DNA of 58,620 bases, counting the filler, from Dirinaria sp. TL-2023a (lineage: Eukaryota), in NCBI GenBank assembly GCA_051941275.1. It is 9 parts of 9 records of this genome, joined end to end, with 100 filler letters (N's around TTAATTAATTAA, not from the genome) between each part and the next. Parts side by side here need not be neighbours in the genome. Positions count along the whole stretch, not along the records: positions 52,219 to 58,620 come from JAVEBF010001488.1; 8 more parts are not named here. One strand, given 5' to 3'. Each line of letters starts with the position of its first letter. The first letter of the stretch is position 1. Below the pieces are notes generated by a model. It did not search any database. It saw only the letters and a list, made by a program, of their open reading frames with translations, and was not told where the DNA came from. The translations under genes were made by a program, and so were the position numbers. Of this stretch, positions 1 to 58,620 are shown in pieces.

Positions 1-3000
1 GGAGGTCACAATGGCGCTGGTGGGGATGGTGGGGATGGTGGGGACGACGGTGGCGATGATGGGAGGAACGACTGGAATGCGCCAAAGAAAAAGAAGGGCA
101 AAAAAGGTAAGGGTGGTGTAGACGAGGAAGAAGAGAAGCGAAAGAAGGAGGAGGAGGAGAAGAACAAAGAGAAAGAGGAAGAAGAGGCAGCCAATGCACA
201 CACACTGCCTTGGGAGAACGGGGGCGACGCGAATCCCGATGATGAGTGGGGAGCCTCCACCACTACCGCCAAAACGGGTAAGAAGAACAAAAAGGGCAAG
301 GTACGTCTCCACGTTTATCATATCATTACAATGTATATCAGCGCTAATTCATTAGGCCAACCCTGAACCTGCAGCCACAGCCAACCCTTCAATAGGCACT
401 TTTGACGATATCAATCTCGGTGATTCTCCAAAGCTCGACTTGAATTTTGGTGATACAGGTCTCAAGGACACTGGATCTAGCTTTGGTTTCGGCGGCTGGG
501 GAAGCAATTGGAACACTTCAAATAAGTGGGATCTTGGTACTACAGATACAGCGACCGGCGACACCACTGAAAACACGAAGGGTGCGAAGGATAATTCTTT
601 TGATAGCGGCGATGGTGGTAGCTGGAGCTTTGGGGGCAACAAGAAGAACAAGAAGAAAACCGCCACCACTGGTTTCGATTTCGGGCTTGGAGCACTGGAT
701 GAAACCAACGAGCCAAAACCTGCTGACACTGCAGATATCGACGACTGGGGTGGATTTGGGAAAAAAGATAAGAAAGCCAAGAAGAAAGGTGCATTTGACG
801 ACATTTCGCCGGATATAGACTCTACTGCCGTGGGAACGGCATTGGATGAACCGGCTACCAATGAATCATGGAGTGCATGGGGTACAACGATTTCCAAAAA
901 AGAAAAAAAAAAGGGGAAGAAAGATTTACCAGAAGAGATACCTCAGGTGCCTCCCCCACCACCTGCCGCACCTTCCAATCCCCCAGCTGGCGATGCATGG
1001 GGCATTTTCAATACGAAGAAGGACAAGAAAGGCAAGAAGGGTGCTGTTGAAGATAAGGCAGAAGACCCGTCAGTCGTGATAGTCCCCGAACCGGAACCTG
1101 AAGTAGACGTTGGCTGGCCATCTTTCGGGGCCAAGAAGGAAAAGAAGAAAGGCAAGAAAAATCAAGTCGAAGAGAATGCTGAACAATACAATACGGCCAC
1201 TGTGGTGGAAAAGGATGCCGACCCGCCAGAAGCAGAGTTCGGTTGGGGTAACGTTGCCACTGGCAAGAAAGACAAGAAAAAGAACAAGAAAGGTGCTGCC
1301 GAAGGATTCACTGAAGAACCAGTCGCTGCTCATGTTCCTGAAGCGGAGCCTGAAGCAGATCTAGGCTGGGGGTTCGGTGCTAAGGACAAGAAAAAGAATA
1401 AGAAAGGCGGCGTAGAAGAGTTTGCTGAAAACCAAGTAGCCGCCCATGTTCCTGAGCCGGAGCCCGAAGCAAATCTAGGCTGGGGATTCGGTGCGAAGAA
1501 GGAGAAGAAAAAGGGCAAAAAGGGTGCAACTGAGGAGCTACCAAAAGAGGAGCCTTTTCCTGCAGAGTTGCATGACACCGAAGCTACACTGGACGGGGGC
1601 TGGGGTGCCTTCGCATCTAATAAGGACAAGAAAAGTAAAAAGAAGAGTCTTCTGGACGAATTTCCTGCCGCAGACGACACTGGTGTATCTTCGTTCGCTA
1701 ACCCCGGTCTAATGGCCGATGACCCTCTTGGCTCCTGGGGAAGCGCAACGAAGAAAGAAAAGAAGGCCAAGAAGGGTCTCATCTCTGAGGTCAGCGACGA
1801 TCCCATCGCTGCTGTTGAAACCGCCGCTGCTGCAGAAGCTTTGGCTGCCGACGATGATTGGATGAATTGGGGCAACGGTGATAAAAAAAAGGACAAGAAG
1901 ACTAAGAAAGGCACGACGGCTGAGGCCAAGAAGGAAGAGTTTTTGCCACCGCCACCGCCTCCTCCACCTGTTGCACCAGAACCTTCGACGGCTGATATTT
2001 GGGGATCGGGCAAAAAGGATAAAAAGGGTAAGAAAGGCGGGGCCGCATTTGGAAAACTCAACCCTGACCCCGTTGAAACTGTGCCCGAACCCGTCGAAAT
2101 AAATCCCGAATCTGTCGAAGAGGATTGGGGTGGTTGGGGTCTCTCGGCAAAGGACAAGAGGAAGAAGGAGAAGGAGAAAGAGAAGGAGAGAAGAGAGAGG
2201 GAAGAAAGGGAGAAGGAGGAGGAAGAGGAGATGGAGAAAGCAGAAAGAGAAGAGAAGGAAAAGGCCGAGAAGCTGAAAGCGAAGGAGAAGACTAAGCCCG
2301 GGAAGAAGGGCAAGCTCGGTGCAGCGTCGGAAGCATCGAAGATGGATGATTTGATGAAGGATTCCATGCCTGATGCAACTCCTGCGATCGAGGAGGACCT
2401 TTGGGGTAGCGGTTGGGGATCCTTGAAAAAAGACAAGAAAAAGGGAGGGAAGAGCATGATACCCGATATCCCACCGCCAGTGCCCACACCTCCAGCTCAA
2501 GGGTTAACGCCCGAGCCAGGGCCGGTCGCTGGTCTCGATAACATGGAGGATGATGGATGGGGCTCATATGCGCCGGCAAAAGCCAAAGGTAAGAAAGAAA
2601 CCAAGCCTACGTCGAAAACTGCGAGAGCGGAGGAGTTGAAGGCGGCGAAGAAGGGCATTAAGGACAAGGCGGACGGCAGGGCCGTTGCGGAGGAGCTCTG
2701 GATGAAAGAAGCACCGGAGGAAGAGAGCGCGGCAAAAGCAACCAAGAACTTTTGGGGCAATATGGGGACGACTACTACTACTACTACTGCTCCCAAGTCC
2801 AAGACAGCAAAGGACAAGGACAGGGGCAACGATCAGAGCAAAGGCGCGCATGGTTTGCATGAATTGGATTTTGAGCTAGGTTCGGACCTGGAGGATCTAG
2901 ATGACGAAATTATTGGAATCACCGAGGAGCCTGAACCAGCGAAGAAACCATCCAAATCCAAGACGGACGGCAGCAAGCTTGCAAAGACGACCAGCAAGGA

Positions 3001-6000
3001 TTCGAAAGCCAGCGGGAAGAGCAGCGCTACCGGCAAGGCTAGCGACAAGAAGAAAACCGGCGAGGACTCGCTTCTGGACGATCTGCTGGAGCTGGGAGAT
3101 GAAGAGGGTGGATGGGGTGGCGAGGATGAGATTAATAATTTCCTCGGCGGGAAAGAGAAGAGCGACAACAAGAAAGACAACAATAATGATGCCTGGAGCT
3201 TCTGGGGTTCGAACAAAAAGACAAGTGGCAAGAAGGCAGATGAAGGCAAAAAGGAGATTACGAAAGCGGCAGCGACCAATCAAAAGGGACCGCTAAAGAA
3301 TGAGCCAGAAGCTACGAGTAGAAGTACGACGACCGCGACCGCTGCTGACGAATCCATATCGCAACCTTCAAAAACTTCAAAAACGACCATGTCGACGCTC
3401 AAAGCATCCAAAACATCTTCAGTCCTGCAGCGCGTGAAAGATTTGGAGAAGGAAAGAGAAGAAGGCGGCGGCAAAGCGTTGGGGTCTTTGGGGAAAACCA
3501 ACACCAAAACCACCGAGACGCAGCCACCCGCGCCCGCGTCTGCATTCGACCCCCTGTCGCATATCGACTCCCCTCCCAAAAAGTCCACTCCGGCCAAGAA
3601 CAGTAACAGTAAGAATAACAACAATAATAGTAATAAATCCAAAACCAATAATTCAGTCGCGGGGAAGAAAAAGGACTCTTCCCCTCCAGGCGCCAAAGGC
3701 AAGTTCGCCCAGGTCAACAACGACACCCTGCCCGGTAGTTTCCCGGCAGAAGGCGCCGAAGACGACGGCGACGACTACTTGGACGACAACGACAACGACA
3801 ACGACTTCTTTGCCAACCAAATCGGTTTCTCTCCAGCAGGCAAGAAAGGCCAAAGCAAATCTGCCAAACCCAAGAAGAAAGATCTGAACATGGAAGATTT
3901 CATGTTTGATGACCCGGTTCCAGAGGCGCCAGAGGTACCACCTGCACCACCTACGCCGCCCGCCGACCCGCCGCCAGCTAAGCCTGCGAAAAAGGAACGC
4001 GCGCGCGTCGTGGAAGGCGCATCTTCCTGGGGCTTTTGGAATGCTGCGCCGAAGAAAGATCCGAAGAAGGAGCGCAAGGCCAAAGACGATGCTGACGTTC
4101 CCTCTGCCAAGCCCAAAGCCAAAGCGCCAACTCCAGCTTTCACGCGGTCCAAATCCACCAGGACCGCCAAGGAGAAGGAGAAGGAGGTCGAAAAGTCCTC
4201 CAAATCGTCCGCCTCGGATGAGAAGGAGAAGAAGTCGGAATCCCGACCTTCCAAATCACGCGGATCCAGCTTTGGCGGGTTTTTCGCGCCAGCTCCCGTG
4301 CGTGGCAAGACTGTTCGAAGGCCGAGCGCAGCTGCCTCCAAGGCTGCGTCTTCTCGAAGGCAGTCCGTCGACGTAGATGCCACCGGATTACCGTCGCCGC
4401 CTCCAGAAAATGCGCCGGAAATGAATTCGAAGGCTGCTAAGCTCATGGGCACTGGTCCCGGGAAGCTTGATCGAAAGGCCTCCGTTCGCGGAAAGCAGAA
4501 GCCCAAAGGTAGTGAAACCAAATCGTCGTTAGAGAGCATTCAAGAAGCTGATCCACGCAATACAGCGGTGCCAGATCCGTACCCCATCGATGACGACGAT
4601 ATGGTCATGATTGGTGGTGTAGATGATCCAATGCTTGATGCTCCTCTTCCGGCCCAAACCCCGGCCAAAGGTGCCAAGAAGGGCAAGCCCTCGAGCAGTA
4701 GTAAAAGTAAACCCAAGAAAGCAGTAAGTCAGACTCGACCATCTTCCCGCAAGACTTCCACCCGCAAGACTTCCACTTTGCCCGTTCGTGTTCGCAGTCC
4801 ACAACATCGTTCCCGTCGTGCATGGACGAGGGCTAATACTCCCAAGCAGCCAACACCTGTGAACGACATGGAAGAAGATATTCCGGAGGACATTGCGGAT
4901 GACATTGTCATGGTTGATCCCACATCACCACTGGACGAGCTTGATGGCCCCAAAGAGAATCTCGCCTTTGACGAGCGCCCTCGGCTGCAGCGAGCCAACA
5001 CCAGTGCCAAGAAATCCAAAGGCGGCCTCTTCAGCGGCTTTGGGTTTGGCAAACCGCGTCGACCGTCGGAGGCGGTGGAGCGCACTAAATCAACCAAAGG
5101 TGCTGTGACTGACGATGAAGGCATGTCCCGCCGCAAACGGACCGTTGCAGGCGGCGAAGACTCCTCCAAACGTCTTCGTCGGGACGACCGCAAAGTCCGG
5201 CGTTCGGACAAACCCGACCGAGTCGCTGAAGGCTTCGTCTATCCAGAAGGTGGCGCATCTGCAGAAGCCGATGATGCAGAAGCCGAAGCCCGCAAGGAGG
5301 AGCGTCGAGCCAAACGCGCGCGCGATGCTGAAACCAGGGATGCGGAAGATCGTCGTGCTCGGAGACGTGATGCTGAAAAGGCTGAAAAAGCTGAGGAAGA
5401 TGTTCGTAAGGCGAAAGCCAAAGACGCACGTGCTCGCCGGGCCAGGAAGGAAGAGGAAGCCGAGGCGCAGCGTCTTGAGGAGAAGCGGGCCAGGAGAGCA
5501 GCGAGGGAGGAGATGAACGTCAAGCTCGGCGGAGAAAGCCGGCCCAAGAAATCCGATCGGCGCAGAAGCTACTTGGACCCTGCCGTTGCCGCAGCAGATG
5601 AAGACGGGGAGAGAAGAGCTCGTCGCGAAGCCCGGCGTGCCGCACGAACCCCGGGCGAGAAGAGCAAGGCGAAAGGGGTGGACGATTATTTCGACCCCAG
5701 AAATGGAGGCGGTAGCGGCGACCGCGACCCTTATCTGAACGGCGGCGGGGGCAACGACCACACTTCAAGCTGGGTGAAATCCCAGCTGAGCGATCCCGCC
5801 GACCCACCGCCCCTCGAAGGCACGGTCATTGATCCTCCGCCTGTGCTTGGGGGCGACGACGACGATGCCGACGCCGCAGCTGCTGCTGCAGCAGCTCCTG
5901 CGCCTGATGATGACGAGGCAGTAAGGAAGGCGCGGAGAAAGTCCCGGCGGCAGAGCAAGTACGGGGACATGGCGCCTGTAGACGATGAGGAACCTCGGCG

Positions 6001-6181
6001 GCGGCGCAAAGAGCGCGAAGTCCGCAGCAGCGAAGGAAGCAGGGAAGAAGTCGAGACAGGGAGGCCGTACTCGAGCCGCAGGAAAAGCGACTATGGTGCT
6101 GTGAGGAGCTACGATGCTCGGCCGAGCGTTGCGGCTGGGGGGAGGAGGGGCAGTCTTTTTAAGAAGTTGGGGCTTTCGTGA
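1..6181 (+). CDS. Large Lys/Glu-rich low-complexity protein with repeated W-G-x-F + KKDKKKGKK motifs (5'-partial)
   Basis: Frame 1 is open from 1-300. A phase-0 intron at 301-355 (GTACGT..GCTAAT..TAG) joins it to the frame of the 1913-aa ORF ending TGA 6181. Two further in-frame GT-AG introns are probable at 4509-4565 and 4724-4849. Confidence 0.85.
1318..1510 (+). repeat. Intragenic tandem duplication, unit ~114 nt (VAAHVPEx EPEAxLGWGFGAK)
   Basis: Two near-identical DNA copies: GCTCATGTTCCTGAAGCGGAGCCTGAAGCAGATCTAGGCTGGGGGTTCGGTGC and GCCCATGTTCCTGAGCCGGAGCCCGAAGCAAATCTAGGCTGGGGATTCGGTGC. Confidence 0.85.
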
Positions 6182-18433: not shown

Positions 18434-19495
18434 ATGGGAAACGATGGCGGCAGGTAAGATCTCGCCCCCCTCAACCATCCCAGAAATCTACTAATCTTTT
18501 ACTACTGCATCAGCATCCCCAAGCGGCGCGAGCTAGTCAAAGAAGCAGCCAAAGACCCCTCCACGACCCAAGCAAAAGAAACCCAGAACGAGCAACAAGA
18601 ATACCGCTGGTCCAACTGCGCCCTATCGAACCAGCCTTTGAGACCGCCCGTCGTCTCCGACTGGGCAGGGAACCTCTACAACAAGGATGCGGTGCTGGAG
18701 TCCCTCATCGCAAACAGCAGCAGCGGCGGCGGTGATCTAATGAAGAGCGACAACGAAGCTACGCGGAGGCCGATAGGAAGCTTGCGAGACGTCGTAGAAG
18801 TCAAGTTTCAAGTCGAGGATGAGGAAGGAGAAAACGAACAACAACAACGCACATCACCAGTGCCGAAATGGGTCTGTCCGATCACGAACAAGACGTTGGG
18901 ACCGGGTGTGAAAGCGGTGTATATTGTGCCTTGTGGCCATGCTTTTGCCGAGAGCGCCGTCAAGGAGATAGCGGCGGAGACTTGTTTGCAGGTAAGGTCT
19001 CTCTTATTCAAGATCGATTTAGATTATGGATATTGAGTAAAAAAAAAACAGTGCAACGAACCCTACACAGCAGCCAACATAATCCCCATCCTCCCAACCT
19101 CAACCACCGAAAAAACACGTACCAAATCGCGCATCTCACAACTCCACGAACAAGGCCTCACCCACTCCCTCAAGAAACCCCCCAACAACACCTCCAACAA
19201 AAAGCGAAAGAAAAACCCCATCGCCAACAACCCAGAACCCGTCCCATCTCCCAATAACAACAACAAACCCCCAAATCCAGCAGCAAACGGCGTAATCCAC
19301 AACCCCTCCACGGCCTCCCTAACCGCGCGCGTGCTGTCAGAGGAGCAGGACCGAGCCAAGAAGAGAAAACAAGCTGCCAACGAGAACGTGAAGAGTCTGT
19401 TCTCGTCAGGCAACGCTCCTAGTAGTGCGATGCAGAAACACGCCGATTTCATGACGAGGGGGTTTTCGATTCCTGCGGCGGGGGCGAAGAGGTAG
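18434..19495 (+). CDS. RTF2: Replication termination factor 2 (Rtf2 RING-finger family)
   Basis: Spliced N-terminus MGNDGGSIPKRRELVK, with CALS, LYNKDAVLE, CPIT and PCGH motifs and a C-terminal DFMTRGFSIP. Introns at 18454-18513 and 18992-19051. Confidence 0.92.
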
Positions 19496-19511: not shown

Positions 19512-19611
19512 NNNNNNNNNNNNNNNNNNNNNNNNNNNNNNNNNNNNNNNNNNNNTTAATTAATTAANNNNNNNNNNNNNNNNNNNNNNNNNNNNNNNNN
19601 NNNNNNNNNNN
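19512..19611. other. Artificial contig linker
   Basis: 44N-TTAATTAATTAA-44N. Confidence 0.99.
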
Positions 19612-20333
19612 AGCCAGGTCAGGCTGTAGATGCCGAGATCGAGCAGGGCGCCCCCCGCGAGCGACAGGTTCGTCATCCGGTGCGAGGAGCCATATTCCTC
19701 TTCGATGTTTTTTCCAAACGAGTTATCGGCCATCACGCGATGGATGTCGCCCACCTCCCCCCGCTCGATCAGGGAGCGGATCTGGATTGATAAAGGGAAG
19801 AAGCGTGTCCAGACTGCTTCCATCAGGAACAGGTTTTTCTCTTTGGCCACGCTGATCAGTTTCTCGGTTTGCGCGGCGTTTACTGTGAAGGCTTTTTCGC
19901 AGAGAACGGGTTTTCCAGCGAGGAGGCAGAGCATTGTGTTTTGGTAGTGGTGCGAGTGAGGGGTCGCGACGTAGATTATGTCCACATTGGGGTCGTGGAC
20001 GAGTTCTTCGTAGGATCCGTATGCGGATGCCGAGGACGGGCAGTGGCATTCGGTCAGGAACTCGCGCGCGCGTTGGGATGAGGTCGACGATGCCGCGGCC
20101 GTGACTGTGTGTGCGATGTCGTGAACCCCGCGCGTGGATGGGTCGAGCATTAGGTCTTTCGTAAAGGTTACTGCGATCCCGCCCGTGGCTGATAGGTGAG
20201 AGTTAGTGCGCGTGATGGGGAAGCGATGGTGATGGGGATTGGGTTCGTTGGAGCAATTGCTCGTTCGGATTGAAATGCGTAAGAAGGAGACCTTACCTAG
20301 GATACCCCAGCGGACGGTGTATGGGCTAGACAT
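19612..20333 (-). CDS. Gfo/Idh/MocA NAD(P)-dependent oxidoreductase (dimeric dihydrodiol / D-xylose dehydrogenase type), 3'-partial
   Basis: VRWGILATGGIA after removing intron 20296-20189, then YVATPHSHH, VLCEKAF, FLMEAVWTRF and GGALLDLGIY. Confidence 0.92.
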
Positions 20334-20848
20334 TATTGTAGGCGGTCGAGGATTTGGGTGTGTGGATTGTTAAGAAAAGGCAAATGGATTGCTTGGTATT
20401 AAGGGTGTATAGGAGAAAGACGACAAAAGATCGAATGAGACGTAATACCTCACATTCATTATTATTATGATGAATAATTCAAAATCGACGGGCCATCAAT
20501 GAGGTATTGTGGGGTTGTTCGAACCAGGTCTGGCGACGTCACAGATTACCAATGGTCTGCAAATTATGCGGTTGGCCATTTATGCGTAACTCGTACATTC
20601 GGGATGAAGTCCGTTTTGCGAAACTTGCAGATCGACTTGCGGGCCCCTTATGCTTCCCGTACGTTTGCCCGACTTGAGGCTGAATTGACGATATTTTCGG
20701 GACCACAGCCAGAGCCTCGAGACATTTATAATTATTCGGGGTATTCCTTAATATACATGCACTGGCCAGTGCTCTTTATGATACCGCCCCATGTCCTCAC
20801 ATGCTCCTCGCAGATGCAGCAGTATGAAATCGATGGTATGGACACGCA

Positions 20849-22043
20849 CTATTTCTTCTTGTCGCTTTCTTTTCCTTTGCCTTTCGGGCTCTGCTCCTCC
20901 TCTTTGATTTCTTTGGCATCGCCATCCACAACACCGTTCGTCTTCTTCTCATCCTTTTCCTCTTTGCCCTCCTCTTTCTTCGCGTCCTGCTCTTCCTGCT
21001 GCTGCCGGTTCTGGATTTTGTTCTCGATCAGATCGTGGAAAGCGGTGATGGCGCGGATCAAACTGCTCAGATAGATGGCCATGAGCTGGTCGTTGGTCTT
21101 GATACTCATCGACCGTGCAAGCTCGGTGTTTTCAAGGTGTTTTGAGTTTTCCGTGTTCTTCTCGGTCGAAGTGGTTGCTAGGGGGTTTGAGAGGTTCGGA
21201 AGGAGATTGAAGACGTCTTGCAGATGTCCGAGGATTGTGTGGTTGACAGGGAGCTCGCCGTTGATAACTTTGTCTAGGTACCTCCCAATGTCGCGTAAGC
21301 GGAGATGTAGACCTTGAAGCGATTGCAATTGTGCAGTGATTCGAGTAGAGAGAGTGCCGACTGCTACATCTCGGATATCGCGTAGGAGGTGTTCAACGCC
21401 AATCTCTTCTGCTTCCTCGGCCTCGATGATGGATGGGGTATGTACAAAGGTCTTGCTGGTAGTGGTGCCATCCTGTGCACTTTCTGTCAGCACTAGCAAT
21501 TCTCCCATCAGGCGGAGAAAGCTTACGTCCTTGATTTCCTCAACGGCGAAGTAGGCATCCGTAGGTACACCGACCTCCTTTGGCTGCACATCGATGATTA
21601 CAAGGAGCGGATTAGGCGTGTATTTTTTGAAGAGCTCATTTATGAGAAGATCTGATGCTCGCAATTTGGGCCCAGAGTGATACCACCCAATAAGCTTCTC
21701 CCGCGCGTTGACCTTCTTGAACATGTCGTTCATCGACTCAACGTAATTGTGGTCGAGGAACCATACTGAAGGATCCTTATCGTCTTCCTCGAATGGTACT
21801 GGGAAAAGTCATCAACGAGCACATATAGCAGATAGACCGAGGGGAGCTTTGAAACCCACCTGCGAAGCTGTTCGAGACTCTAACATTGGTGCCATCATTT
21901 TGCCCAAGCAGGACACCGACGACTCGCTTTCGCAGCCCTTTGCCAGAGCGACCGAAGTGGTCTGCGGCGGATAGGAGGACCAGCGGAGCAACAGATACCG
22001 TGCGAGTCACGAGCGACAGCGTTTCTGCGGTGGTTGCAGGCAT
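20849..22043 (-). CDS. RPN8: 26S proteasome lid subunit Rpn8 (MPN domain)
   Basis: [52 protein letters not shown] and [13 protein letters not shown]. Introns at 21859-21799 and 21526-21473. Confidence 0.97.
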
Positions 22044-22384: not shown

Positions 22385-23378
<994 letters not shown>

Positions 23379-41566: not shown

Positions 41567-42763
41567 ATGGATCCAGAAGTCATCTCGAATTTCCTCTCGG
41601 AGCAACGCGAAAATGCGCCTGAAGAACTGCAGCCAAACTTCCTTACCATAGAAGATTACTGGGACCGCAAACTATGGCATCAGCTCACGGATGTTCTTGT
41701 CGACTACTTCAATACCCCAGCCAGCGCTCCCCAGCGATTACCCCTCTTCCAAAAGTTCATCTTAACCTTCGCGGAGAAGATCAATCAGCTGAAGTTCGTC
41801 CGCTTGGGACTTCTAGCAGCTACCCAATGCGCAGGTAATGCCCGCTTCGGTACCGAATAGAAAGATAGGTACTGAGCAGCTTTAGATGACCATGAGCGAC
41901 TCACCTTCCTGACCGATCTCTCCACCAAAGTTAACAAACTCTCATCCCAAGATGCCTATGTTTACGCCCTAGTCGCCGCATCAGACATCAAGCTCAGCCT
42001 TTCCGACTACGCCTCCGCACGAAAAGACCTCGACACCGCCGAATCGATCCTCGACACCTTCGACAACGTCGAGACCGAAGTGCACGCCACCTTCTACCGC
42101 ACGAACGCGGCCTACTACCAAGCCAACCACGACCACGGCGCCTACTACAAGAACGCCCTGCTCTACCTCGCCTGCATCGACCTCAAGACGCTCTCGACCC
42201 AGGACGCGCAGTCGCGCGCCTACGATCTGAGCGTCGCGGCGCTGATATCGAGCACGATCTACAACTTCGGGGAACTGCTGCTGCACCCGATCCTCGACAG
42301 CCTGACCTCGACGCCGCACGCCTGGCTGCGCGACCTCCTCTTCACCTTCAACCGCGGCGACCTGACTGCGTACAACAGCCTCGAGCCGCACCTCGCCAAA
42401 TCGCCGCAGCTGGCCGCGAACCGGGAATTCCTCGCGCAGAAGATCGCCCTGTCGGCGCTGACGGAGGCCGTGTTCCGCCGGCCGCCGCACGACCGCGCCA
42501 TGACCTTCCAGACCATCGCGCACGAGACCAACGTCCAGCCCCAGGACATCGAGATCCTGATCATGAAGGCGCTGAGTCTGGGCCTGTTGAGGGGCAGCAT
42601 CGATCAAGTGGCGCAGGTGGCGCGGATCAATTGGGTGCAGCCCAAGGTGCTGGATATGAAGCAGGCGGACAGCATGCGCAAGAGGTTGAAGGAATGGGAC
42701 AGCAGTGTCAACCAGCTGGGGAATTGGATCGAGGGGGTTGGCAAGGATGTATGGGCTGCGTGA
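41567..42763 (+). CDS. RPN9: 26S proteasome lid subunit Rpn9 (PSMD13, PCI domain)
   Basis: DYWDRKLWHQLT, YYKNALLYLAC, IYNFGELLLHPIL and MKALSLGLLRGSIDQV..WVQPKVLD. Intron at 41835-41885. Confidence 0.97.
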
Positions 42764-43086: not shown

Positions 43087-45168
43087 CTACAGTACAGGGC
43101 TGCAGACGACTCCTCCGACCAGCCACGCCGGCCACCAAATGCACCAAACCACCACTTGCGTCCACAAGCCCTGCACCTTCCAACCGAACGCCGCCTCCAG
43201 CAGCATCTCGATCACATCTACCCCCCAAGCCTGACACGCCACCATCACCACCACGGGGGGGGAAAGCAATTGGAGGAGTGCGGTCAGCAGAAGCTTCCTC
43301 ACGCGGCTGCTCGGCATGTTTTCGGTCGCCGTGGTCGAAAATGGCTGGCCGACGAAGGATAAAGGTGCAGCGAGCAGACCCACGAGGAAGGCGAGGGAGA
43401 AATTGAGGGTGGCGAGCGTGGCGAGGAACATGCCGAGGAGGAGCAGGGAGAAGCATTGGAGTAGCAGTCGTTGCTGGGAGCTCAGAGGCCATTGGGAAGA
43501 TAGGAGTAAGGCGAAGAGGGTGGGGAGAGCGGAGTTGACCTGGGCGAAGATCGGTAAGAGCCATGATAAGGTCTGGATCATTGTTAGCGACCAGCTCGTA
43601 GAAAGGATATTGGGATAAATTCTTACGTCACGAGCAGCATTGTTGAAGGCGTAGAGCGGGAACACGCCGCAGAAGTGAGATGCCACGACCAGTGCGATGG
43701 GGAGGAAAAGCTGGCGTTCAACAATGGTCAGGCTCTGCTTGGGCATCACCGCCGTCATCCCATCTTGCTTGATGATTTCAACTTCTGACTTTTCGTCGCG
43801 TTGGGATGTCGTGGAGCCCAGCTTAGGAGCTGGTGAGCGCCCGCTCTGTATCCATAGTGCTATTGCCATGATAGTGAAATTGACAGCCACAAGCATTGCG
43901 CTGGGCAGGTAGGTCCCAATACTGACGAAGCGGTTCGCCTGCATTAACAAGTAGAAGAAGAAACTTTGATGGAACTTCTCGAGAAGATTGTTCAGGCTTC
44001 GGAAAGTGCTTTCGACGCACCGGCCCATCGCCATCTCATCCTGCCAACCATCACCAACTGCTTGCAGCGTGATTGCATCGACATGGTACGGAATGAAGCT
44101 GCTATGGGGTCCTGATGCATGGCCAAGACCTTGGCTGACCATGCCTCGAAGCATCGTTTGCAATCGATCTCTGTAGTTGTCGGTATGCTTCCACATACGT
44201 TGGAGAACGACACCGATTCCCATTTGACCGCTGGCTATAGATGTAGCAGTGTTGAAAAGGTCAAGATTCGGAAGCTGGCCGTTAATGCCGTCATAGACAA
44301 TATGTATTGACTCGAAGCGATGGTTGAGAGCATTGTCTAACACCACGATCCCTTGCAGTGCTCCGCTCTTGATGGGCAGAGGCGCGACTAATGGCGAAGA
44401 ACGCTCGTCATGATAGGCATCTACCCAAGCCTGTGGGCCAGCCTTACTGTCGGAGGTAATCAGTACAATGATGTCTTTCGACCATAATGACCAGCCTGCT
44501 TCAAAGTCAGATCAGCTAGTCTCAACCTCAGCCTTTTGGATGCGCACGCTTAAAGTATCTCGCCAAAGTCAAGACCAGTGCAACACCGCTCTGATTTAAT
44601 TCTCCATCCATGTTTGTCCATGCTGCCAACAGGACAATAGCCTCAGTAGCATCTCCACGAGGCGCGTGTAGGATTGAATAGACATTCTCCCCACTGTATG
44701 CAATGCCTGCGGCTTGATATTCGTATTTCTGCCGAGCAGCCCTCAAGCCTGCGGATTTGAAGATCTCTTCGAGCTTGGCGGATATCCTTAGTAGGTATTC
44801 CAGTCAGTCCCAAAGCCCTCAATGGACAGCATTGCACCAACGTACTCAGCCTGCTCTTTACCAGCCAGTGCCTGAACTTCATACTTGTAGGCATTGAAGA
44901 TGTGCTGCTCGCTACCGCCGAAGTATGTGTGGACCTGTCCTGGCAAGAGAGCGTTTTCCGATATATATGTATGCCTTGAATATTCGTTGAGTGGCAGCAA
45001 CAGGAGCCATGCGATGCCGATTATGATGCAGAGGATTGAAAAGTACGGAGGAAGCTTCAGTATCCGCGGATCACGGCGAAAGGCCAATACCGCAGGAGCT
45101 TCTAGGGCCATTAGCTGTGAAGTTGGGATTATAATATTGGCATATATTGACTCACATATCAATGCCAT
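43087..45168 (-). CDS. GAA1: GPI transamidase component Gaa1
   Basis: TYISENALLPGQV, APRGDATEAIVL, WSKDIIVL, GINGQLPNLDL, RSLNNLLEKFHQSFFFY and a multi-TM C-terminus. Several introns. Confidence 0.96.
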
Positions 45169-47538: not shown

Positions 47539-50500
47539 ATGGAGGGCTCATCTTCGAATATGCAACATTCTTTTCGTGGTGAAGAGAACGAGTTTGCCGG
47601 TATGAACGCTTTTAAATAGACTTGTCTTGAGTAATACGATATCAAGATGTTCTCAGCTAATTTGATATGTGATTGAGCAGATGATAGCTCTCCTGGGAGG
47701 CTTGAGGCTCAAAGAACACTACCTAGTATCTCTTCTATGCTCCTCCCCGAGAGGCTTGAAGCCCAAGGCAGAGAAGCACCATCTAAAGCCTATTCTGCAC
47801 AATCCGGTCCAATTACTACTTTCTCCTCCCCAAACTGGGCTAAGATTTCTCGACTTGAAGCCTTGCACTTGCCGGGGTTTCATGACCCCATGTATATACC
47901 CTAAGACTTTACAGATGGAGAGGCGCTAACTAAAGCTAAGAGCCAGCATGCAGACTCACAATGGAATATTGAACACGCAGTCTTCTATTGCTCCGTCAAC
48001 GTCAGAAAGTTTGTTCCGTCCTCTAACGAGGTACAATTATCTACCTGTCTCTTTTGATGGTGTATCTTGGTCTTCTAAAACGTCAGAAAGCTCGTACCCA
48101 TCCTTGGTAGGGAGCGAACTCTCATCGGAATTCTTTTCCTCATCATGGCTCGAAGACTCTTATATCGGTGGGGACAGTGGGTATCAAAGTTACAATTCCT
48201 TACCGGAAGTTCCCCCAGACGTTGTGGACTTGAATCAGGAAAGCAAAGCTGAACCAAAAGAAGTATCTCCGCGTCCTGGCCTTTCCAAAAATGCGAAACC
48301 TCGTAAATTGGCGCATCAATCGGAGCGACCCGAGAAATGCCCTATCGAATCTTGCGAATGGTCTCGGAAAGGGTTTGCTCGTAAGCATGACAGAAATCGT
48401 CATATTCTAACTCACTTCGAGGGCAAATTGGTATGTATCTTCTGTTCAGATGCTGGCTCTGCATCACAGAAGAACTTCAACCGTATGGCCGCCTTCAAGC
48501 GTCATCTGGTTTCCGTGCACGGTGCAGAACAGATGCCTCGTAATTGTCGTAAAAAGAAAACGACTGCTCCTCGAAATAGCCTTTCCACCACGGTTGTAGC
48601 CGAAGGAGGAAAATGTTCTAGCTGTTTTGAGACTTTTCACAACGCTCAGGCATTTTATGAGCATGTCGAAAGTTGCGTACTGCTTCATGTAGTTCACGAA
48701 CAAGGCTCAAAGCAAACAGCAGATCAGCAACAAAGCCCAGAAAGTACTAGAGCTTCAAAAGGAAAAAAGAACATACAGCAGAGCGCTAGCACTAAAGATA
48801 AAGCTGTGTTTGAGGACTCATCTGTTGGACAATTAGGTGGGGCAAAAAAAGATGATATGGACAGTGGTGATTGGAATCAATCTACGCCTGAGGACTCTTT
48901 GACTGTGAGCCATACGCGTTCACTCAGCGAAACACAAACCCCGACTAGAGGACCGTCTAAGTTGACTCATTCCGATCATGTCAAGTTTGCTGAAAATACC
49001 ATGCCAATTTCTGATAAGATTTTCGAGCCGGCCCATGCACAAAACTCCTCAATCTCAAGTATGCATAGTGAGTGCTTGTTGAAAGTCACGGCAGGACTTG
49101 AAGAAGCGTCAACCCGAGACGGTGATAGGACCCCCAATACGACTTCTGGCTCTGAAAGTGATGAGTCTCAAAACTCCCTCATCCATAATAGCCTCGAGAT
49201 CGCGGTCTTGCACTCACGACATCAGATCATGACCAGAATCATGGAGGAAGTTTATGCTATTTTTGACCGACGATGGGCGCCCAGCACGCAAACCCATGCA
49301 AGAGAAGCTTCAGAAAGTGGCCCTCAATCCAGTCCAAATACACAGGAGGCTGGGGATACTGGAAGCTCAAGAGGTGTCAAGCGGAGCAGAGACGATAGAG
49401 ACGCTTCACCATCCAACGGTCGTCGGAGAAGAGGAGTAGATGGGTCCAAAACTCCGTTGATACTTGATGACGAAAGTCAACCCTTTGCTTGCCCATTACA
49501 CAAGCATGATTCGGAGAAATACAGTTGCAATACTATTACGGGCTCTAAATTTAGGGCATGTATGGGCCCTGGGTTCACAACCATTGCGCGCCTTAAGTAA
49601 AGCTCCTTGACAGTAACTTATACTCTTCGGTCTTAAGTTTCACTAATATTGCTGCAGGCAGCATTTGAAAAGGGTCCATAGTGCACCCATTCAATGCACA
49701 AGATGCTGGCTTGTGATGTCAGACCTACAAGCCATGTCTAATCACGCAAACCAAGAAATACGTTGCGATGCACGAGAGCCCCAGCCAGAGGGCATATCAT
49801 TGGACAAGATGCGGCTCATTTCCAGCAAATGGGGGGCAACCTGGGCAGATATATACTCTATAATCTTCCCAGGCGCACCTGTACCAAGTCCTTGTGAGTC
49901 TCACGCGTTACGTGCGGACTTTAAAGGCCTTTTAACTAATGTTGAAAGATTATGAACATAATTGTCCAAACAGGACTGTATTACCAACTCCTCAAGCTAG
50001 GGAGTTGGCCGATTTCGAAGCGTACAATCGCACCGAACTTCCACGGCTTGTAGAGGCGAATCTTCAGACTTTGGTCAACGCTGAGATCTTACCTCTTGAA
50101 GAGAGCCTTAAAAGAATGCTCGTTGATATTGTGAGGCGCTGTCAGTCAACAGTGGCCCAAAATTATGATCGCATTCACCCAGCCAGCTCGCAGGAGAGGG
50201 ACTCTGGGTCGTCACAGGTCTTGAATACTTCATTTGATTTCCAGGCTGAGGATACCAATGTCAACTTTGATGCATTGACTGCAGGACGACAACAGCTTCT
50301 AGAGCAACCTGCACAGCTGGATCAAACCAATACCACCGCTTTCTTTGAGGAACCGCCGCCGCAATCCACGAATACTCTAGACGTGCAACCAGAAGACTAC
50401 CATCCCAAGTCTGCAGCGCAAAGTCCAGATTCAGGCTACGGCAGCTTCTTATTTTGCACCTGCACCTGTCCATCACAAGAGGAGTTTCCAATTAGTATTT

Positions 50501-52218: not shown

Positions 52219-53109
52219 TTTAACATCTCTATTAAGCAACTTCACAACTAATCAGTCATTCCACACCCTTTCTAGTGCCTAGCTTAGTTGGAGCGAAGCG
52301 TTTGAATGTCACTTTGTGCTGCGCATATCAGCTAATGCTATTTGCATTCTAAATATCATACTCGATGAGCAATTGTCTTTGTATGCCCACACGAGTAAAT
52401 TCGACTTTGAAACTCCAGATGTCATCTTCGATGTGGAATTATCATTGTGGGCGCAGTTGGAAATACTTTCTTCTCGGGCGGTGGATTTATTGAGCTCGAC
52501 GTTAGATCTACTAAATATTCTCGATGTATTTTAACAGAGGCTGCTTTTGAATTGAATTTGAGGATGAATATACGTAGGATTTCCAGCATCTGCTCTGACT
52601 TTTATAGATGTTTTAATATCGTCTGTTTTGGAATCGTATTGGATATCAAATGGCGGAAGCTCTCGTTTACTCAATTACTCAATCACTTCAGATATTAGTT
52701 GATTTGGTAGAAGGAGTTGTTGGCACATTTTGGGGCAGTTTTGCTTGTTAGATCGTCGCTTCTGGCGCTGGCGAAGCTTGATTCAATATATGATTTTTTT
52801 GGAAATGCTTGTCCGATGAGGTATTGAAAGGATTTATAAAGCGATTGTTTAGGGGTCAGCTTAGATGCAGAAGTGGTCTAAGTGACTAGATCATTTGAGT
52901 AACAATCTGTAATTCCTGTACGTTTATCTTATAGCTGTGTCGAGGCAACAAGTATCTCGCTCAGTTGATTGATATCATAGTTACAGGTCTAAGAAAGTGA
53001 ATCTGTCTATCGCCGTTGAGTGAGTTCCCTCTTTCGATAGTTTCAAGGAAACGAAGCACAGCACGGCCCTTACAAAAACTGTCACCCCTACTTTCTTCGA
53101 TTTTTTGCT

Positions 53110-54228
53110 TCACTTGACGCAATTCTTAGCCCATTGTACATCGCCCCTCTCGCCCACAATCCTCGATGTGTTAATCTCGAATTTCCAATCCCATCCGTCT
53201 GACTGGTAAGGCTGGATCGTTGCTAAGGAGATATGGGCATCACAAATGCTACCTGTCGAAAGCTCCATTAGTAAACTTTTTTTCCTCTACTAAGTTAGAA
53301 TTAAATGTTAAACTGCCGTCATCTGATACGACTGATCTTTTATCCGCAGAAGACAAGGATCGTATACCAGGGGTGTCGAGAAAGAAAAAGGTTCCAGCTC
53401 ACAATTATAACCCTCTTCCGCTGTCCTATATCTTAGTATCGGATCCCGCAGGCCCACGTCCGGATTCACTGCCTCGTATATCGTCTCTAAAAACTCTGGG
53501 TCATTCAAACGCTTATGCGCACACAACTGCACCTCCGCTTTCTCCACCTCTTGCCCTAATGCCTCTATCGTCTTAGCTATCTCGGGCGCGGACGAGAGAA
53601 AGATGTCCCAGGTCATGCACAGCACCAAGCAGGGCTCCTTTCTCGATGGTCGTGTATAGAGCATGGGATCGTCATGAGGGTGATGAGGGGTTAGTGTGTA
53701 AATGTAACGGCCTTTTCCCCGGACCCTAATCATATTTCGTGCCTGCTCGCGTGGACTGCTAAAGACTCGGCCAAGAGGTTCGCAGGCAGTCTTTAGTTGG
53801 ACGTGTCTTGTGAAACCAGTGTCCGGGAGTCGGTGATGAGCACGCGGACTCGAAGTGAGGGCGTCAACCTCTTTCGGCTCGGCCAATTTGTCCACGGGTT
53901 TTAATCCAGGTAAGCTGGCTATCAGCGCGACACGAGCAGCTGTTAACGATTCGTGTGGGCAAATGGGCATGGTCTCCGGGGTACCGGGTAGCGCTGGAGC
54001 CGTTGGATCGGATAGCCTAGAGGAGGGAGAGGATTGCTCGAACGGGCTGCCCAGAGGCTTTTCGTCTTTGACTTGTCCCTCGCCAGTGGCATCATTGTTA
54101 GGTGTATAGGCGGGTGGTGGGTTGGTGGATGCTGTGGAAGTGCGCCAAAGTCCTGTTTCGGTCTGATCGTGAGCATTGGATGAGCTGGACGCGGAGGGTG
54201 GCCGTGTGAAGATGGAAAAGCGAGGCAT
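53110..54228 (-). CDS. Hypothetical 322-aa protein with a PPxY motif and scattered Cys/His motifs (2 exons)
   Basis: ATG at 54228. A phase-1 intron at 53402-53253 (GTGAGC..ACTAAT..CAG) creates YNCSICDAH and extends the frame to TGA 53110. Motifs PPPAY, ICPH, LCAH and CxxC. Confidence 0.65.
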
Positions 54229-55335
54229 TTTGGCTGTTCTGACAATCCAAGGGCAGAGACCTATAGGGAGGATAGGAAGAGCAAGAAGCAACAATAGGTA
54301 AGGACTACTTTTTGATCGGGAAATTTAAAGCCTCCTGGTTAGATTGTAGAAGATTTTGGGTAGTAGACAAAATAAATTATTTCAGGATTTTTCCCTCTCA
54401 AATAATGGAGAATTTGGGTAGGCTAAGATGACTGATCCTCGGAATATGGCTTCAAAACGCCGCCGATGAGGAACGAGCAAAGATATTGAGACTCTGTGAT
54501 GTATAAGAAATTTCGTAGAGAATGCAGCTTTCTTAACGCAAGACGCTAGCTCGGTGAGGTATTTATTGCAATCTAGTCCTTGCTAGGGAAGGACTACAAG
54601 CTGCCCTGCCGTAGGAAGCAGTCACGAGAACACGTCTCTGAACTCTTCTAGTGGTCGATTGGAACTGGAGAGTAAGGTATATGTGGTAAAGAATTTGGCA
54701 CCGGGTTTTTCTTTTCTTCTTGCCTTGAAGTCTTGACTGTTTTAGGAGACAGATATCGTGTGAGGCATAATATTGACTGCTTCCTGATGACTTGACTGAC
54801 AGTAGAAAACTTAATCGCTGATGTGCTTAGGATTGAGCAAAAGGCTGACTTTTCCCTTTGCAGCCTTTCGATTGTCGCCGGACTTGTTTCGGCATGAGAG
54901 CGACTGTGGTGGCAGTATCTGAGGTTAGGCTCCAAGGCATACCTTTCGGCAGGATGCACAGCCTATATGTATGCATCCAGATTTGACTGGTGGATGAACC
55001 TGGGGCGCACCATGAACCCGCCAATCCGTCGTTCCACTCGGTTACTCGATAGCGATCACTCCAAACCCAGATTGGGCCTGAAGTCTTGGCGTACCTTACG
55101 CTGACTAAGCTCATGCTTTAAGGGTGGCCTCAGTGCCGTCAATATCCAACAGCAGAGCAAAGTATTCCTTTGAAGCGTCATACTCGAAACCCCGAAAAAG
55201 CTTAAGACTGTCAACGACGACATTCGATAGTCGAAAACAACGCTCTCGTTCTACCGGTGCTGAACTACAATACCCCTACGCAAACTATCTTCATCCTATA
55301 CAAATCAGGAAACATTTGGGATTCCACCTACTATT

Positions 55336-56625
55336 TTACTCCTCATCTCCCTCAGGAGATCTGACTGGCCTTAGCTCGACCTTAAGCCCACCATGTTCAC
55401 CCTCTCCTAGTGGAACATCAGCAAGGTACTTATAAAATCAGATCCATCCAGAAGAGCCGAAGGTGCTTGCCTCATGACGCTAGCTTCAAGACCGTGTTAA
55501 GGACATCTACGCACCTATGCCATCTGCTACACCAAGCTGGCCGTGATTCACGCATAGAGTATCAACAGCCACTGCTGCGGCCCAAAGATCGAACCACGCG
55601 CTATATACCGTCAGTGCGGACGTGAAAACTGTTATAACGCATCGGGAGCCCGCTGCCAAACCTCCAGTTAGTGCTCTTTCCTATTTTGGGAATCAGCAGT
55701 ATCGGCATACCAGCTCTGTAAGACTTGGGGAGAGGCACTTGAACGCCGAGGCTATGCTTGTATCCGAATAGCAAACGATTCCCCGATGCGGGCATGAGAG
55801 ATATAGGTCTCGAGCATGAGCCGAGAGGTGGTGGTTGGCCTCCGCATGTGACACTGGGTTCGTATTTCCTAACTACGACAATTAATGCAGAGGCCGTCCC
55901 TATTTGAAAGTTGTCAGAGATTTCAGATCTTACAACGATAGCATTCATCTCTGATAGGGCCTTTCAGTGCTCAACCCCACCTATTTCAGCTATACTGCCA
56001 CCCTCTGTGCTCCCTTCTGTCGGAATGCACGTTTCAATCACACGTTCAGCGGCAGCTTTGATCTGGGCAGTGAATGTCACGTCTGTGACAGAACCAGGAG
56101 CGATGATGAGGTCGATGACGCATTTGCCGTCCGCTTGGTATGGCATCAGTAATCATTAGCTTGAAAATTGACAACATAGAAATGATTGCCATCTGCGTAA
56201 GATGACTTTTCCATTTTCTAAGTGGAACTATACTTACAGCTACTCCACCGATTGGGGAGCTTCATGAAAGGTCTATATGGCGAACCGCGTTGAGCAACTG
56301 TGAAAATCGTCATAGTGGATCCAATCTTCTCTAAAGCCTCATCGCAGGAAGCACGGTCTAGATTCTCGCCGTAACGATTCCGATCACATACGGGATCCGC
56401 GCTAAGAAGAGCAGGGAACACATCGTAGGATGAGAAATTGCTTTTGGTGGAGCCATTTTTGGTGAACAGAGCGTCTGGGTTGTCTGATGGTAAAGATTGT
56501 GAAGACTCAAGAACAGAGGCTCGTGGTGCGTCTAGCGCAGATGTCATTGACAGGCTCAGAAGATGTGAAGCGAAAGCGAAGAAAACCAAATAGGTCTTGA
56601 ACCAATTGTAATGCATCATGGCCAT
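55336..56625 (-). CDS. Secreted Cys-containing protein with two tandem homologous domains (KP4/Ecp2-like pattern), 312 aa, 5 exons
   Basis: Signal-peptide-like N-terminus. Exons 56625-56238, 56133-55981, 55899-55711, 55652-55515 and 55406-55336; all introns are phase-1 GT-AG and the product is stop-free. Confidence 0.8.
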
Positions 56626-57150
56626 ATGAGCGAGACTTACAGCAACGTCAAAAGGGTCGAAGTTGATTTCATCTTCTTATCAGGTCGCTAGCAGTCGGCT
56701 GTGATTTTACGCGCTGCCATAAGCATATAGCCGCAAGGTGATACAACATTGGAAGATGAAACCTTTCATTCAATTTGTCTGAACATCATGAGCCTCGAAT
56801 CTCTCACCCGCTGCTGTAACCTGCAAGCTCTATACTAGATAGATATCTTAACGTAGGTCCCTATTACCCGAATTCCGGTATACATACTATGTACGGGTAG
56901 CCTTAAGGCCACAGCATAGGAAGCTACTGCACAACGCCAGAAAAGGCTCGAATTAATTTGCGTGGCAGAATTCGGGAGAAGGGGGCTTCGGTACTGCAGC
57001 CAATGTGGGCCGACTAGCGCAAGGCTGAGGGAGGTGGGGGAATTAGTCGGCGGCCGCGATCAGATGATCTGACTGAAAATATCACGTCTGAGATCACTAG
57101 ATGCGTCTTCTGTTGCGAGTAAATATTTCGAGTAAACTTTCTTGACAACC

Positions 57151-58620
57151 ATGGTGACCACAACGAAAGGGAGTGAAGACAGACAATGCGCCCGCTGCAG
57201 AGAGGCGGACCAGGAATGTCAGCCGCGCGATGCCGATTATGTGAAGTGTCAGCGTTGCTTCGCGGAACATGAGGAGTGCAGTTTCGAGAATTCCGATCGC
57301 GAAGATGATTCTTTGATTCTCGTGATAGGGCCCACGGGTGCAGGCAAGACGACATTTATCGGTCGATGTATTGACTCGATTATGCTCGAGCGAAGCCATG
57401 GCTCAGAACCTAGTATATCTAATCATTCTGCTGCATCACGCCGTAGCTAAATCAGTACACAGAAACACGGGGAAGTGAAGAAGCTATAGCGAGCTGGGGA
57501 GGCCACAATATTGATCTCATTGATACTCCGGGCTTTGGCGCTACAAACCATCCAGACGCAGACATCTTGATTGAATTGGCTTCTTTCCTAGCTGATGCGT
57601 ACAAGCAGCGCATAACAGTGACCGCCGTTGTCTATTTGTACCCTATCTCATCTCATAGGATAAGGCGCAGTGACGTACGAACCCTCAAAATACTTGCAGA
57701 GCTAATTGGAAATGAATCTGTACCCAAAATAATACTCGCAACTACTAAGTGGGACACTGGTGATACTGCACTTTACGAGCAGAGGGAAAAGGATCTCCAC
57801 ACTCGCTTCTGGGGCCAGTTCCTAGCGAAGGGATGCATGACCTTCAGATTGGATGGACGACGAGAGTCAGCCCTGAGAATTTTGAACGCAGTTATTGCTA
57901 GAAAGCCAGCAGATTCAGCGCGTGAGACGAAAGCTTCTCTGCAAATCCAGCGAGAGCTGGTGGACCAGAGTAAACTACTTGTCGACACTTCTGCGGGCCA
58001 ACTCCTAACCTCACTGATCTTAGAACTTATAGAGAAAAGGGAGAAAGAGCTAGAGGAGCTCACTGCGGATTTCAAGTCAAGCGTCAAAGACAACAAGTCT
58101 AGATCCGCATCAGTGCTCGAGCGTGAGTCAAAATTACAGAAAGAATTGACAAGATTACTGCGAGAGCAGAAAGCCACGCAGGTTGCCATGCAGGTTGACT
58201 GTCAAACCATGCTCGCAGAGGCTACCAAAGAGAACACGAGGCTTCAGGATCTAATGATGAAAGAAGCGGAAGACAAATTTCGACTTGCAGGTCAAAGGAG
58301 AAAGCGTTATATAGAGAATAGCCTCAAAGTGGTGAAGATAGGAACGAAACAACCGAACAGAGACACGCCAGCATTGACTCTCAATCAGAGATCTAGAGAG
58401 CATGAGATTCAGAAGCAATCTAGTTCAGGTAAGTAGCTGACTCAGACTCAAAGTCGGATAACTCATGCTGATGTCTGTTAGGCTCGGCGCATTTAAGCTC
58501 TGGATTCATGGCAGATCTTGCGGAGAGCACTTGTGATGATGCTCACATTGAAGAAAGCTTAAAATCAACGCTTGCCCGAAACCAGACTAAATCTGCTCGA
58601 CTTCAACCGACAATCGAGAG
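57151..58620 (+). CDS. Zn2Cys6-like cluster + AIG1/septin-like P-loop GTPase + coiled coil (3'-partial)
   Basis: G1 GPTGAGKT, G3 LIDTPGF and G4 TTKWD. Introns at 57413-57462 and 58429-58481; the frame stays open to the window end. N-terminal C-x2-C-x6-C-x9-C-x2-C-x6-C. Confidence 0.85.

Follow-up and report, generated by a model that had tools for sequence, protein, structure and literature searches.

A predicted divergent AIG1/GIMAP-like GTPase from Dirinaria sp. TL-2023a with an N-terminal six-cysteine motif in Zn2Cys6 spacing

The DNA analysed here, called the window throughout, is a stretch of 58,620 nucleotides from Dirinaria sp. TL-2023a (assembly GCA_051941275.1) that consists of nine parts of nine records joined end to end with 100 filler letters between each part and the next, and its last part, positions 52,219 to 58,620, comes from record JAVEBF010001488.1. 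The end of this part features a plus-strand gene that is predicted to encode an AIG1/GIMAP-like GTPase with six cysteines near its N-terminus. Judged by its sequence, the gene is real and belongs to a lichen-forming ascomycete, and its 3' end is cut off by the window edge. Exon 1 (57151..57412, +) encodes a 12-residue lead-in that begins with the start codon, the six-cysteine motif (C13 to C43, residues 13-43, 57187..57279, +), an acidic linker, and the strand and helix of the P-loop; the G1 P-loop itself, GPTGAGKT (residues 60-67, 57328..57351, +), falls in columns that are 97-100% conserved in the family alignment. Intron 1 (57413..57462, +) is a predicted GT..AG intron of 50 nt. Exon 2 (57463..58428, +) encodes the remainder of the G domain, which includes T89, DTPG (57522-57533) and TKWD (57744-57755), and the helical stalk. 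It would be followed by intron 2, a putative GTAAGT..AG intron of 53 nt (58429..58481, +; donor 58429, AG 58480-58481), and by exon 3 (58482..58620, +), which is open at the window end, so that the protein has at least 455 amino acids and a C-terminus that lies beyond the window. No Pfam family matches the exon 3 piece (58482-58620).

The gene model appears to be well supported. The start ATG at 57151 has A at position -3 and G at +4, and an in-frame stop is located six codons upstream. Retention of intron 1 brings the frame to a stop at 57448-57450, and its removal brings back T89, a residue that never varies in the family, keeps the switch-I spacing of the family and lets the family consensus cross the junction free of gaps. 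Because the consensus is unbroken across the splice junction and T89 is restored, intron 1 is supported. If intron 2 is left unspliced the frame stops two codons later, and when it is spliced no stop is met before the window ends. Once both introns are removed, at least 455 codons can be read without a stop, and the first 409 residues of the product are identical to an NCBI entry of 409 amino acids (P0001 here), [quoted passage not shown]. The NCBI entry shares the start codon and intron 1; it is an automatic annotation of a metagenome-assembled genome (MAG) and has no transcript basis.

The assignment of the protein to the AIG1/GIMAP-like GTPases, which an earlier sequence-only reading of the window had proposed, is solid. 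In the whole protein Pfam finds MMR_HSR1 with 35.9 bits (cut-off 21.9) at residues 56-178 and AIG1 (PF04548) with 32.1 bits (cut-off 27) at residues 56-186. The G motifs are intact, namely GPTGAGKT at 60-67, the switch-I threonine T89, DTPG at 108-111 and TKWD at 182-185. The top sequence match among solved chains is GIMAP4 (3lxx, E 7.5e-5), followed by GIMAP2, GIMAP5 and Toc33/34. An AlphaFold model built from an alignment of 51 sequences has a mean predicted local distance difference test score (pLDDT) of 84.9 and a predicted template modelling score of 0.76, and the pLDDT of its ten-residue blocks is mostly above 90 over residues 51-380. The best Foldseek matches of this model are GIMAP7 (3zjc, 7.5e-12) and Toc34 (1h65, 2e-10), and then GIMAP1, 2 and 5. 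The long coiled coil that the same reading placed after DTPG and TKWD corresponds in the model to a coiled-coil-like stalk of three long predicted helices, residues 264-297, 300-330 and 334-381 (57990..58343, +). The Dirinaria protein thus has in common with the GIMAP/AIG1 and Toc33/34 proteins (solved GIMAP2, 4, 5 and 7, pea Toc34 and Arabidopsis Toc33) the sequence and fold of the G domain, G1, the switch-I threonine, DTPG, a G4 of the T-K-x-D type and a helical extension after the G domain. It differs from them in that its stalk is longer, identity to these chains is 12-20%, and the six-cysteine motif is added at the N-terminus.

When 1.84 billion cluster representatives were scanned with HMMER, 5255 matched at E<=1e-3, of which 2830 reached E<=1e-10 and 142 reached E<=1e-30. 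The sample of 157 family proteins used below consists of the Dirinaria protein, 7 relatives and 149 proteins of the scan. The nearest Atlas clusters are sets of fungal "G domain-containing protein" entries from Basidiomycota, Ascomycota and Mucoromycota, with scores of 0.83-0.88 that serve as leads only. The closest relative of the Dirinaria protein shows 30-42% identity to it, and the protein itself forms a singleton cluster of 1 member. With members of this fungal family, such as the entries from Agrocybe pediades and Psilocybe cyanescens, it shares the G domain and a following block of the form L-x-I-Q-x-E ... T-x-A-G. On this comparison it is a divergent member of the AIG1/GIMAP/Toc34-like GTPases with a helical stalk, which form a very large and unstudied family in fungi. 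Tandem G domains occur in the family, where 56 of the 157 proteins have 2-4 P-loops, and 13 of the 157 feature a hydrophobic C-terminal 18-mer that resembles the tail anchors of GIMAPs and Toc34. A Sordariales NLR preprint reports that an orthogroup of the same family, OG0000027, was set aside for lacking repeats.

The cysteines are found at residues 13, 16, 23, 33, 36 and 43, which is the register C-x2-C-x6-C-x9-C-x2-C-x6-C. The consensus of the binuclear zinc cluster is C-x2-C-x6-C-x(5-12)-C-x2-C-x6-8-C, and the six-cysteine Gal4-type spacing that had been described at this position is therefore present and in register. The motif had also been described as lying about 10 residues before the P-loop strand in the same exon, which agrees with the 11 residues counted from C43 to the beta strand LILVIG; the P-loop begins 16 residues after C43, all within one exon. 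The pattern is not due to chance, because only 684 of 45,057,474 placements of six cysteines in the 59 residues before the P-loop give this register (p = 1.5e-5), because the exon 1 motif is the only stop-free one of 3 regex matches in a six-frame translation of the whole window, and because the leaders of 51 other family members of comparable length have from 0 to 3 cysteines each. The P0001 sequence has no further in-frame ATG between the start at 57151 and its P-loop, and any product of exon 1 that bears the P-loop must therefore contain the motif. The GC content at third codon positions is 0.62 for codons 1-50 (57151-57300) and exceeds that of all 355 later 50-codon windows, the maximum of which is 0.58. 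This is a weak hint of a differing origin or constraint for the first 50 codons.

The explanation preferred here, which is given about an even chance, is that the protein is a real, divergent member of the family whose leader has gained a small, lineage-restricted and metal-nucleated cysteine knuckle that does not bind DNA. A number of observations weigh against it. At the 71 conserved family columns the protein agrees at 52 and departs at 19, and the replacements include D114 to A and G142 to A (each column 98% conserved) and G156 to R (90%). D113 to G and R117 to H are replaced as well, so that the D-D that follows DTPGF is lost; the fungal family conserves this D-D and G142. Such departures could mean relaxed constraint. 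The six-cysteine register is found in none of the 156 relatives, and there is consequently no sign that selection conserves the motif. The gene is located at a contig end in a metagenome-assembled genome. Searches with the N-terminus also return no kin. A word search with residues 1-52 gave 1 candidate, which was the Dirinaria protein itself; a comparison of the 87-residue exon with longer proteins gave 10 candidates, of which that protein alone scored; and the ESM Atlas had no usable match to residues 1-52. Pfam Zn_clus (PF00172) does not match the 87-residue exon at E<=1, nor, at E<=10, the whole protein, its first 50 residues or slices of 38 and 34 residues, in scans where the HMMER filters may hide very weak Zn_clus matches and where the five slices were run without a positive control.

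The divergence of the protein and the nature of its annotation also bear on an explanation under which the motif lies outside the working protein, in that the mRNA begins elsewhere, an upstream exon is spliced behind the motif, or the gene is a decaying paralogue combined with an annotation accident at the end of a MAG contig. An AG at 57280-57281 could act as an acceptor behind the motif, the model has the automatic NCBI annotation as its sole support, the protein is a singleton that differs at 19 conserved columns, and the third-position GC content of the first 50 codons stands apart. However, the reading frame meets no stop in at least 455 codons over two well-placed introns, the start context is strong and has a stop six codons upstream, a register with p = 1.5e-5 is unexpected in untranslated sequence, and the core GTPase motifs are intact. 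This explanation is regarded as unlikely.

As to the identity of the motif, the description of it as a Gal4-type binuclear cluster stands for the spacing but not for the domain itself, for which there is no Zn_clus match on five slices, no N-terminal relative and only weak, discordant models; of the three Pfam families named beforehand, AIG1 and MMR_HSR1 are above their cut-offs and Zn_clus is the one without a match. The Gal4-type reading is unproven, its basis being the cysteine spacing. The motif shares with Gal4-type Zn2Cys6 domains the cysteine register, a position near the N-terminus and a proline in the loop between the third and fourth cysteines. The differences concern the residues that touch DNA, which lie in a basic loop in Gal4-type domains and in an acidic one here, and the downstream region, where the Dirinaria protein lacks both the middle domain of fungal transcription factors and an element for dimerisation. 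In addition, no zinc-cluster protein became a candidate in 5-residue word searches with its N-terminus. The loop between the second and third cysteines is acidic as had been noted, reading READQE with one basic and three acidic residues, and the whole motif has 5 K+R against 8 D+E and is net negative. Binding of DNA by the motif is judged unlikely because of READQE and this excess of acidic residues.

A working DNA-binding Zn2Cys6 domain that would turn the protein into a GTP-regulated transcription factor is accordingly the most improbable of the explanations weighed, and it is hardly credible. The register is the one feature that speaks for it, and it is opposed by the acidic stretch, the net negative charge and the failure of Zn_clus to match. 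In zinc-cluster factors the cluster is immediately followed by a linker and a coiled coil for dimerisation, a place that the G domain takes here.

Structure prediction of the N-terminus is of low confidence. The ten-residue blocks of the N-terminus have a pLDDT of 54-73 over the full and the isolated models, with 54-63 in the full AlphaFold model, where values as low as 38 also occur, which adds to the points against the knuckle, as does the disagreement of the two models in secondary structure. The full model shows short helices at 14-19 and 34-39 with a small hairpin between them, and the model of the isolated N-terminus (mean pLDDT 64.4) shows longer helices at 7-19 and 28-39. Both of these low-confidence models place helices at the two CxxC turns, which is consistent with a metal knuckle of short helices. 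For the isolated 52-residue model Foldseek gives 26 matches up to E<=10, none of them at E<=0.001. Of the 48,161 chains that VIA-align compared with it, 496 reached Z>=2 and none Z>=5, and the best, at Z 4.2, was a helical stretch of menin. The fold matches of the isolated model are generic helical hairpins, and zinc-cluster structures are not among the matches listed, which is no evidence either way. A complex prediction that joined the N-terminus and the G domain, 2 Zn and GTP included, scored 0.00 against a mark of 0.34, an outcome of "no answer", and is not used as evidence.

The helical models are also relevant to an explanation in which the motif is a twin Cx9C (CHCH-like) helical hairpin, either disulfide-held or simply helical, in which C13/C23 and C33/C43 are the Cx9C pairs and C16 and C36 are incidental. 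Cysteines 13, 23, 33 and 43 follow one another at intervals of exactly ten residues, two helices (7-19 and 28-39) form a hairpin in the isolated model, and the only solved chains touched by the 52-residue N-terminus belong to the CHCH protein NDUFA8-B (7ar7_X, E 0.1; 7a23_Y, E 0.14). These matches are, however, non-significant, and any Zn2Cys6 register with x6 in both halves can be read in this way, so that the spacing cannot discriminate between the two. The Dirinaria motif shares with twin Cx9C proteins such as NDUFA8 the x9-spaced cysteine pairs on two helices predicted at low confidence, but it has two extra cysteines exactly at the CxxC positions and no mitochondrial context. The mitochondrial intermembrane space is where CHCH proteins become oxidised, and such a setting would be odd for an N-terminal tag on a GIMAP-like GTPase. 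A hairpin of this type is considered improbable, a little more so than a motif outside the working protein. Another likeness is to the YqeH-type GTPases, which feature a cysteine-based metal knuckle directly N-terminal to the G domain; theirs is a four-cysteine finger on a circularly permuted GTPase that functions in ribosome assembly. The YqeH chain 3ec1_A was met at a non-significant E of 0.57, and the likeness is confined to the N-terminal cysteine knuckle, since YqeH is a different class of GTPase and has four cysteines where the Dirinaria protein has six.

Among the relatives the N-terminal architecture is not repeated. The sequence-only reading knew of no characterised protein with this architecture, and the sample agrees, the Dirinaria protein being the sole member of the 157 whose leader cysteines are arranged as the motif. 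Even the simpler pair CxxC-x(4-20)-CxxC is confined to it among the 157. The matches listed start at its residue 18 or later, nearly all of them at 45-55. The leaders of the relatives are short, cysteine-poor, of low complexity and unstructured, and where the N-terminal parts are longer they are mostly extra G domains. Pfam searches of the 65 members with N-terminal extensions found MMR_HSR1 in 65/65 and AIG1 in 54/65, and each of the 25 most frequent of the 99 Pfam families in these members belongs to the P-loop NTPases, so that those 25 give no pattern of domain swapping at the N-terminus. In JGI metagenome contigs searched with P0001, 17 stretches had the peptide pattern and 0 were confirmed as relatives. 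Literature searches that paired Zn2Cys6 or Zn_clus with AIG1 or MMR_HSR1 found only works with unrelated titles. As far as these sequence collections reach, the combination of motif and GTPase appears to be neither common nor annotated and has been seen once.

The surroundings of the gene add no specialised features. Rfam finds 0 families in 56000-58620, and Pfam finds 0 families in the antisense frames 57014-57355, 57097-57399 and 57773-58189 and in the upstream frame 56218-56625. Elsewhere in the window, the genes identified by Pfam encode Rtf2 (18458-19033, +), a GFO_IDH_MocA oxidoreductase (19563-20369, -), a JAB/MPN protein with MitMem_reg (20852-21808, -), an adenylate kinase (22881-23375, +), Rpn9/PSD13 (41876-42760, +) and the GPI transamidase component Gaa1 (43090-44511, -). 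These are housekeeping genes, and no secondary-metabolite or NLR-type neighbourhood is found in the window. Long open frames with no Pfam family at E<=1e-5 are located upstream of the GTPase gene at 47930-49597 (+, 556 codons) and 53311-54324 (-, 338 codons), the former of which seems by eye to have C2H2-like C..C/H..H spacings. Additionally, an uninterrupted frame of 1941 codons at 356-6178 (+) is rich in K, A, E, G, D and P and features repeated KKKGKK and W-G/F-G stretches; it too matches no Pfam family at E<=1e-5, and its composition suggests a very long protein that is disordered or of low complexity.

These results bear on the suggestion, made with the first description of the motif, that the cluster may be a sensor which does not bind DNA, or an integrated decoy, carried by a GTPase of fungal defence; as a decoy it would mimic zinc-cluster transcription factors. 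GIMAP/AIG1 GTPases have been linked to immune functions in animals and in plants, the family in fungi has expanded enormously and has 2-4 P-loops in 56 of the 157 sampled proteins, and one paper (PMC8778642) describes a fused AIG1-Hint architecture in Glomeromycotina. Those AIG1-Hint proteins (MEROPS C46) likewise combine a fungal AIG1 GTPase with an unrelated accessory domain; however, according to the same source, their partner is a C-terminal Hint autoprotease that is lineage-expanded, whereas the partner in the Dirinaria protein is a 31-residue N-terminal cysteine motif seen once. The decoy idea is not sustained by the sample or by the literature. The motif occurs in 1 of 157 family proteins, which is the Dirinaria protein itself, the 25 most frequent Pfam families of the 65 extended members give no swapped-domain pattern, the neighbours are housekeeping genes, and no immune or defence role for this fungal GTPase family was found in the literature searched. 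In a Podospora non-self study, MMR_HSR1 is named only among down-regulated ribosome-biogenesis domains, which is uninformative on this family. A decoy or sensor on a defence GTPase is thus very unlikely.

A related possibility is that a Gal4-type cluster, whose fold otherwise belongs with DNA binding in fungi, was recruited as an acidic module that does not bind DNA and that either gates the pairing of G domains or serves as bait by mimicking a zinc-cluster factor; this is quite improbable, though somewhat less so than the decoy on a defence GTPase. In the preferred explanation, that of a divergent family member with a metal-nucleated knuckle, the G domain would bind GTP and act by pairing with another G domain in a nucleotide-dependent manner, and the stalk would provide a scaffold, as suggested by analogy with the solved GIMAP and Toc34 structures. 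The N-terminal motif would be a small metal-nucleated knuckle, most likely with two zinc ions, and its metal binding is presumed from the arrangement of the cysteines. The knuckle may have been captured from a zinc-cluster transcription factor and then have diverged, or it may have arisen in place, and it would have lost, or never have had, the basic face that contacts DNA. It could serve as a structural or protein-contact cap beside the first strand of the G domain, possibly with a regulatory role.

The weight of the finding is small at present because it concerns a single gene from a metagenome-assembled genome, with no orthologue found and no match to the cluster profile. Were the motif shown to form a genuine zinc cluster, to be translated and to be retained among related lichens, it would be one of the rare instances in which the fungal Zn2Cys6 fold is reused for a purpose other than DNA binding, and it would open a way into a very large GTPase family of fungi, so far unstudied, with 5255 representatives. 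Should the reading as a recruited cluster be true, the protein would provide a first link between the fungal AIG1-like family and the surveillance of molecules that target transcription factors.

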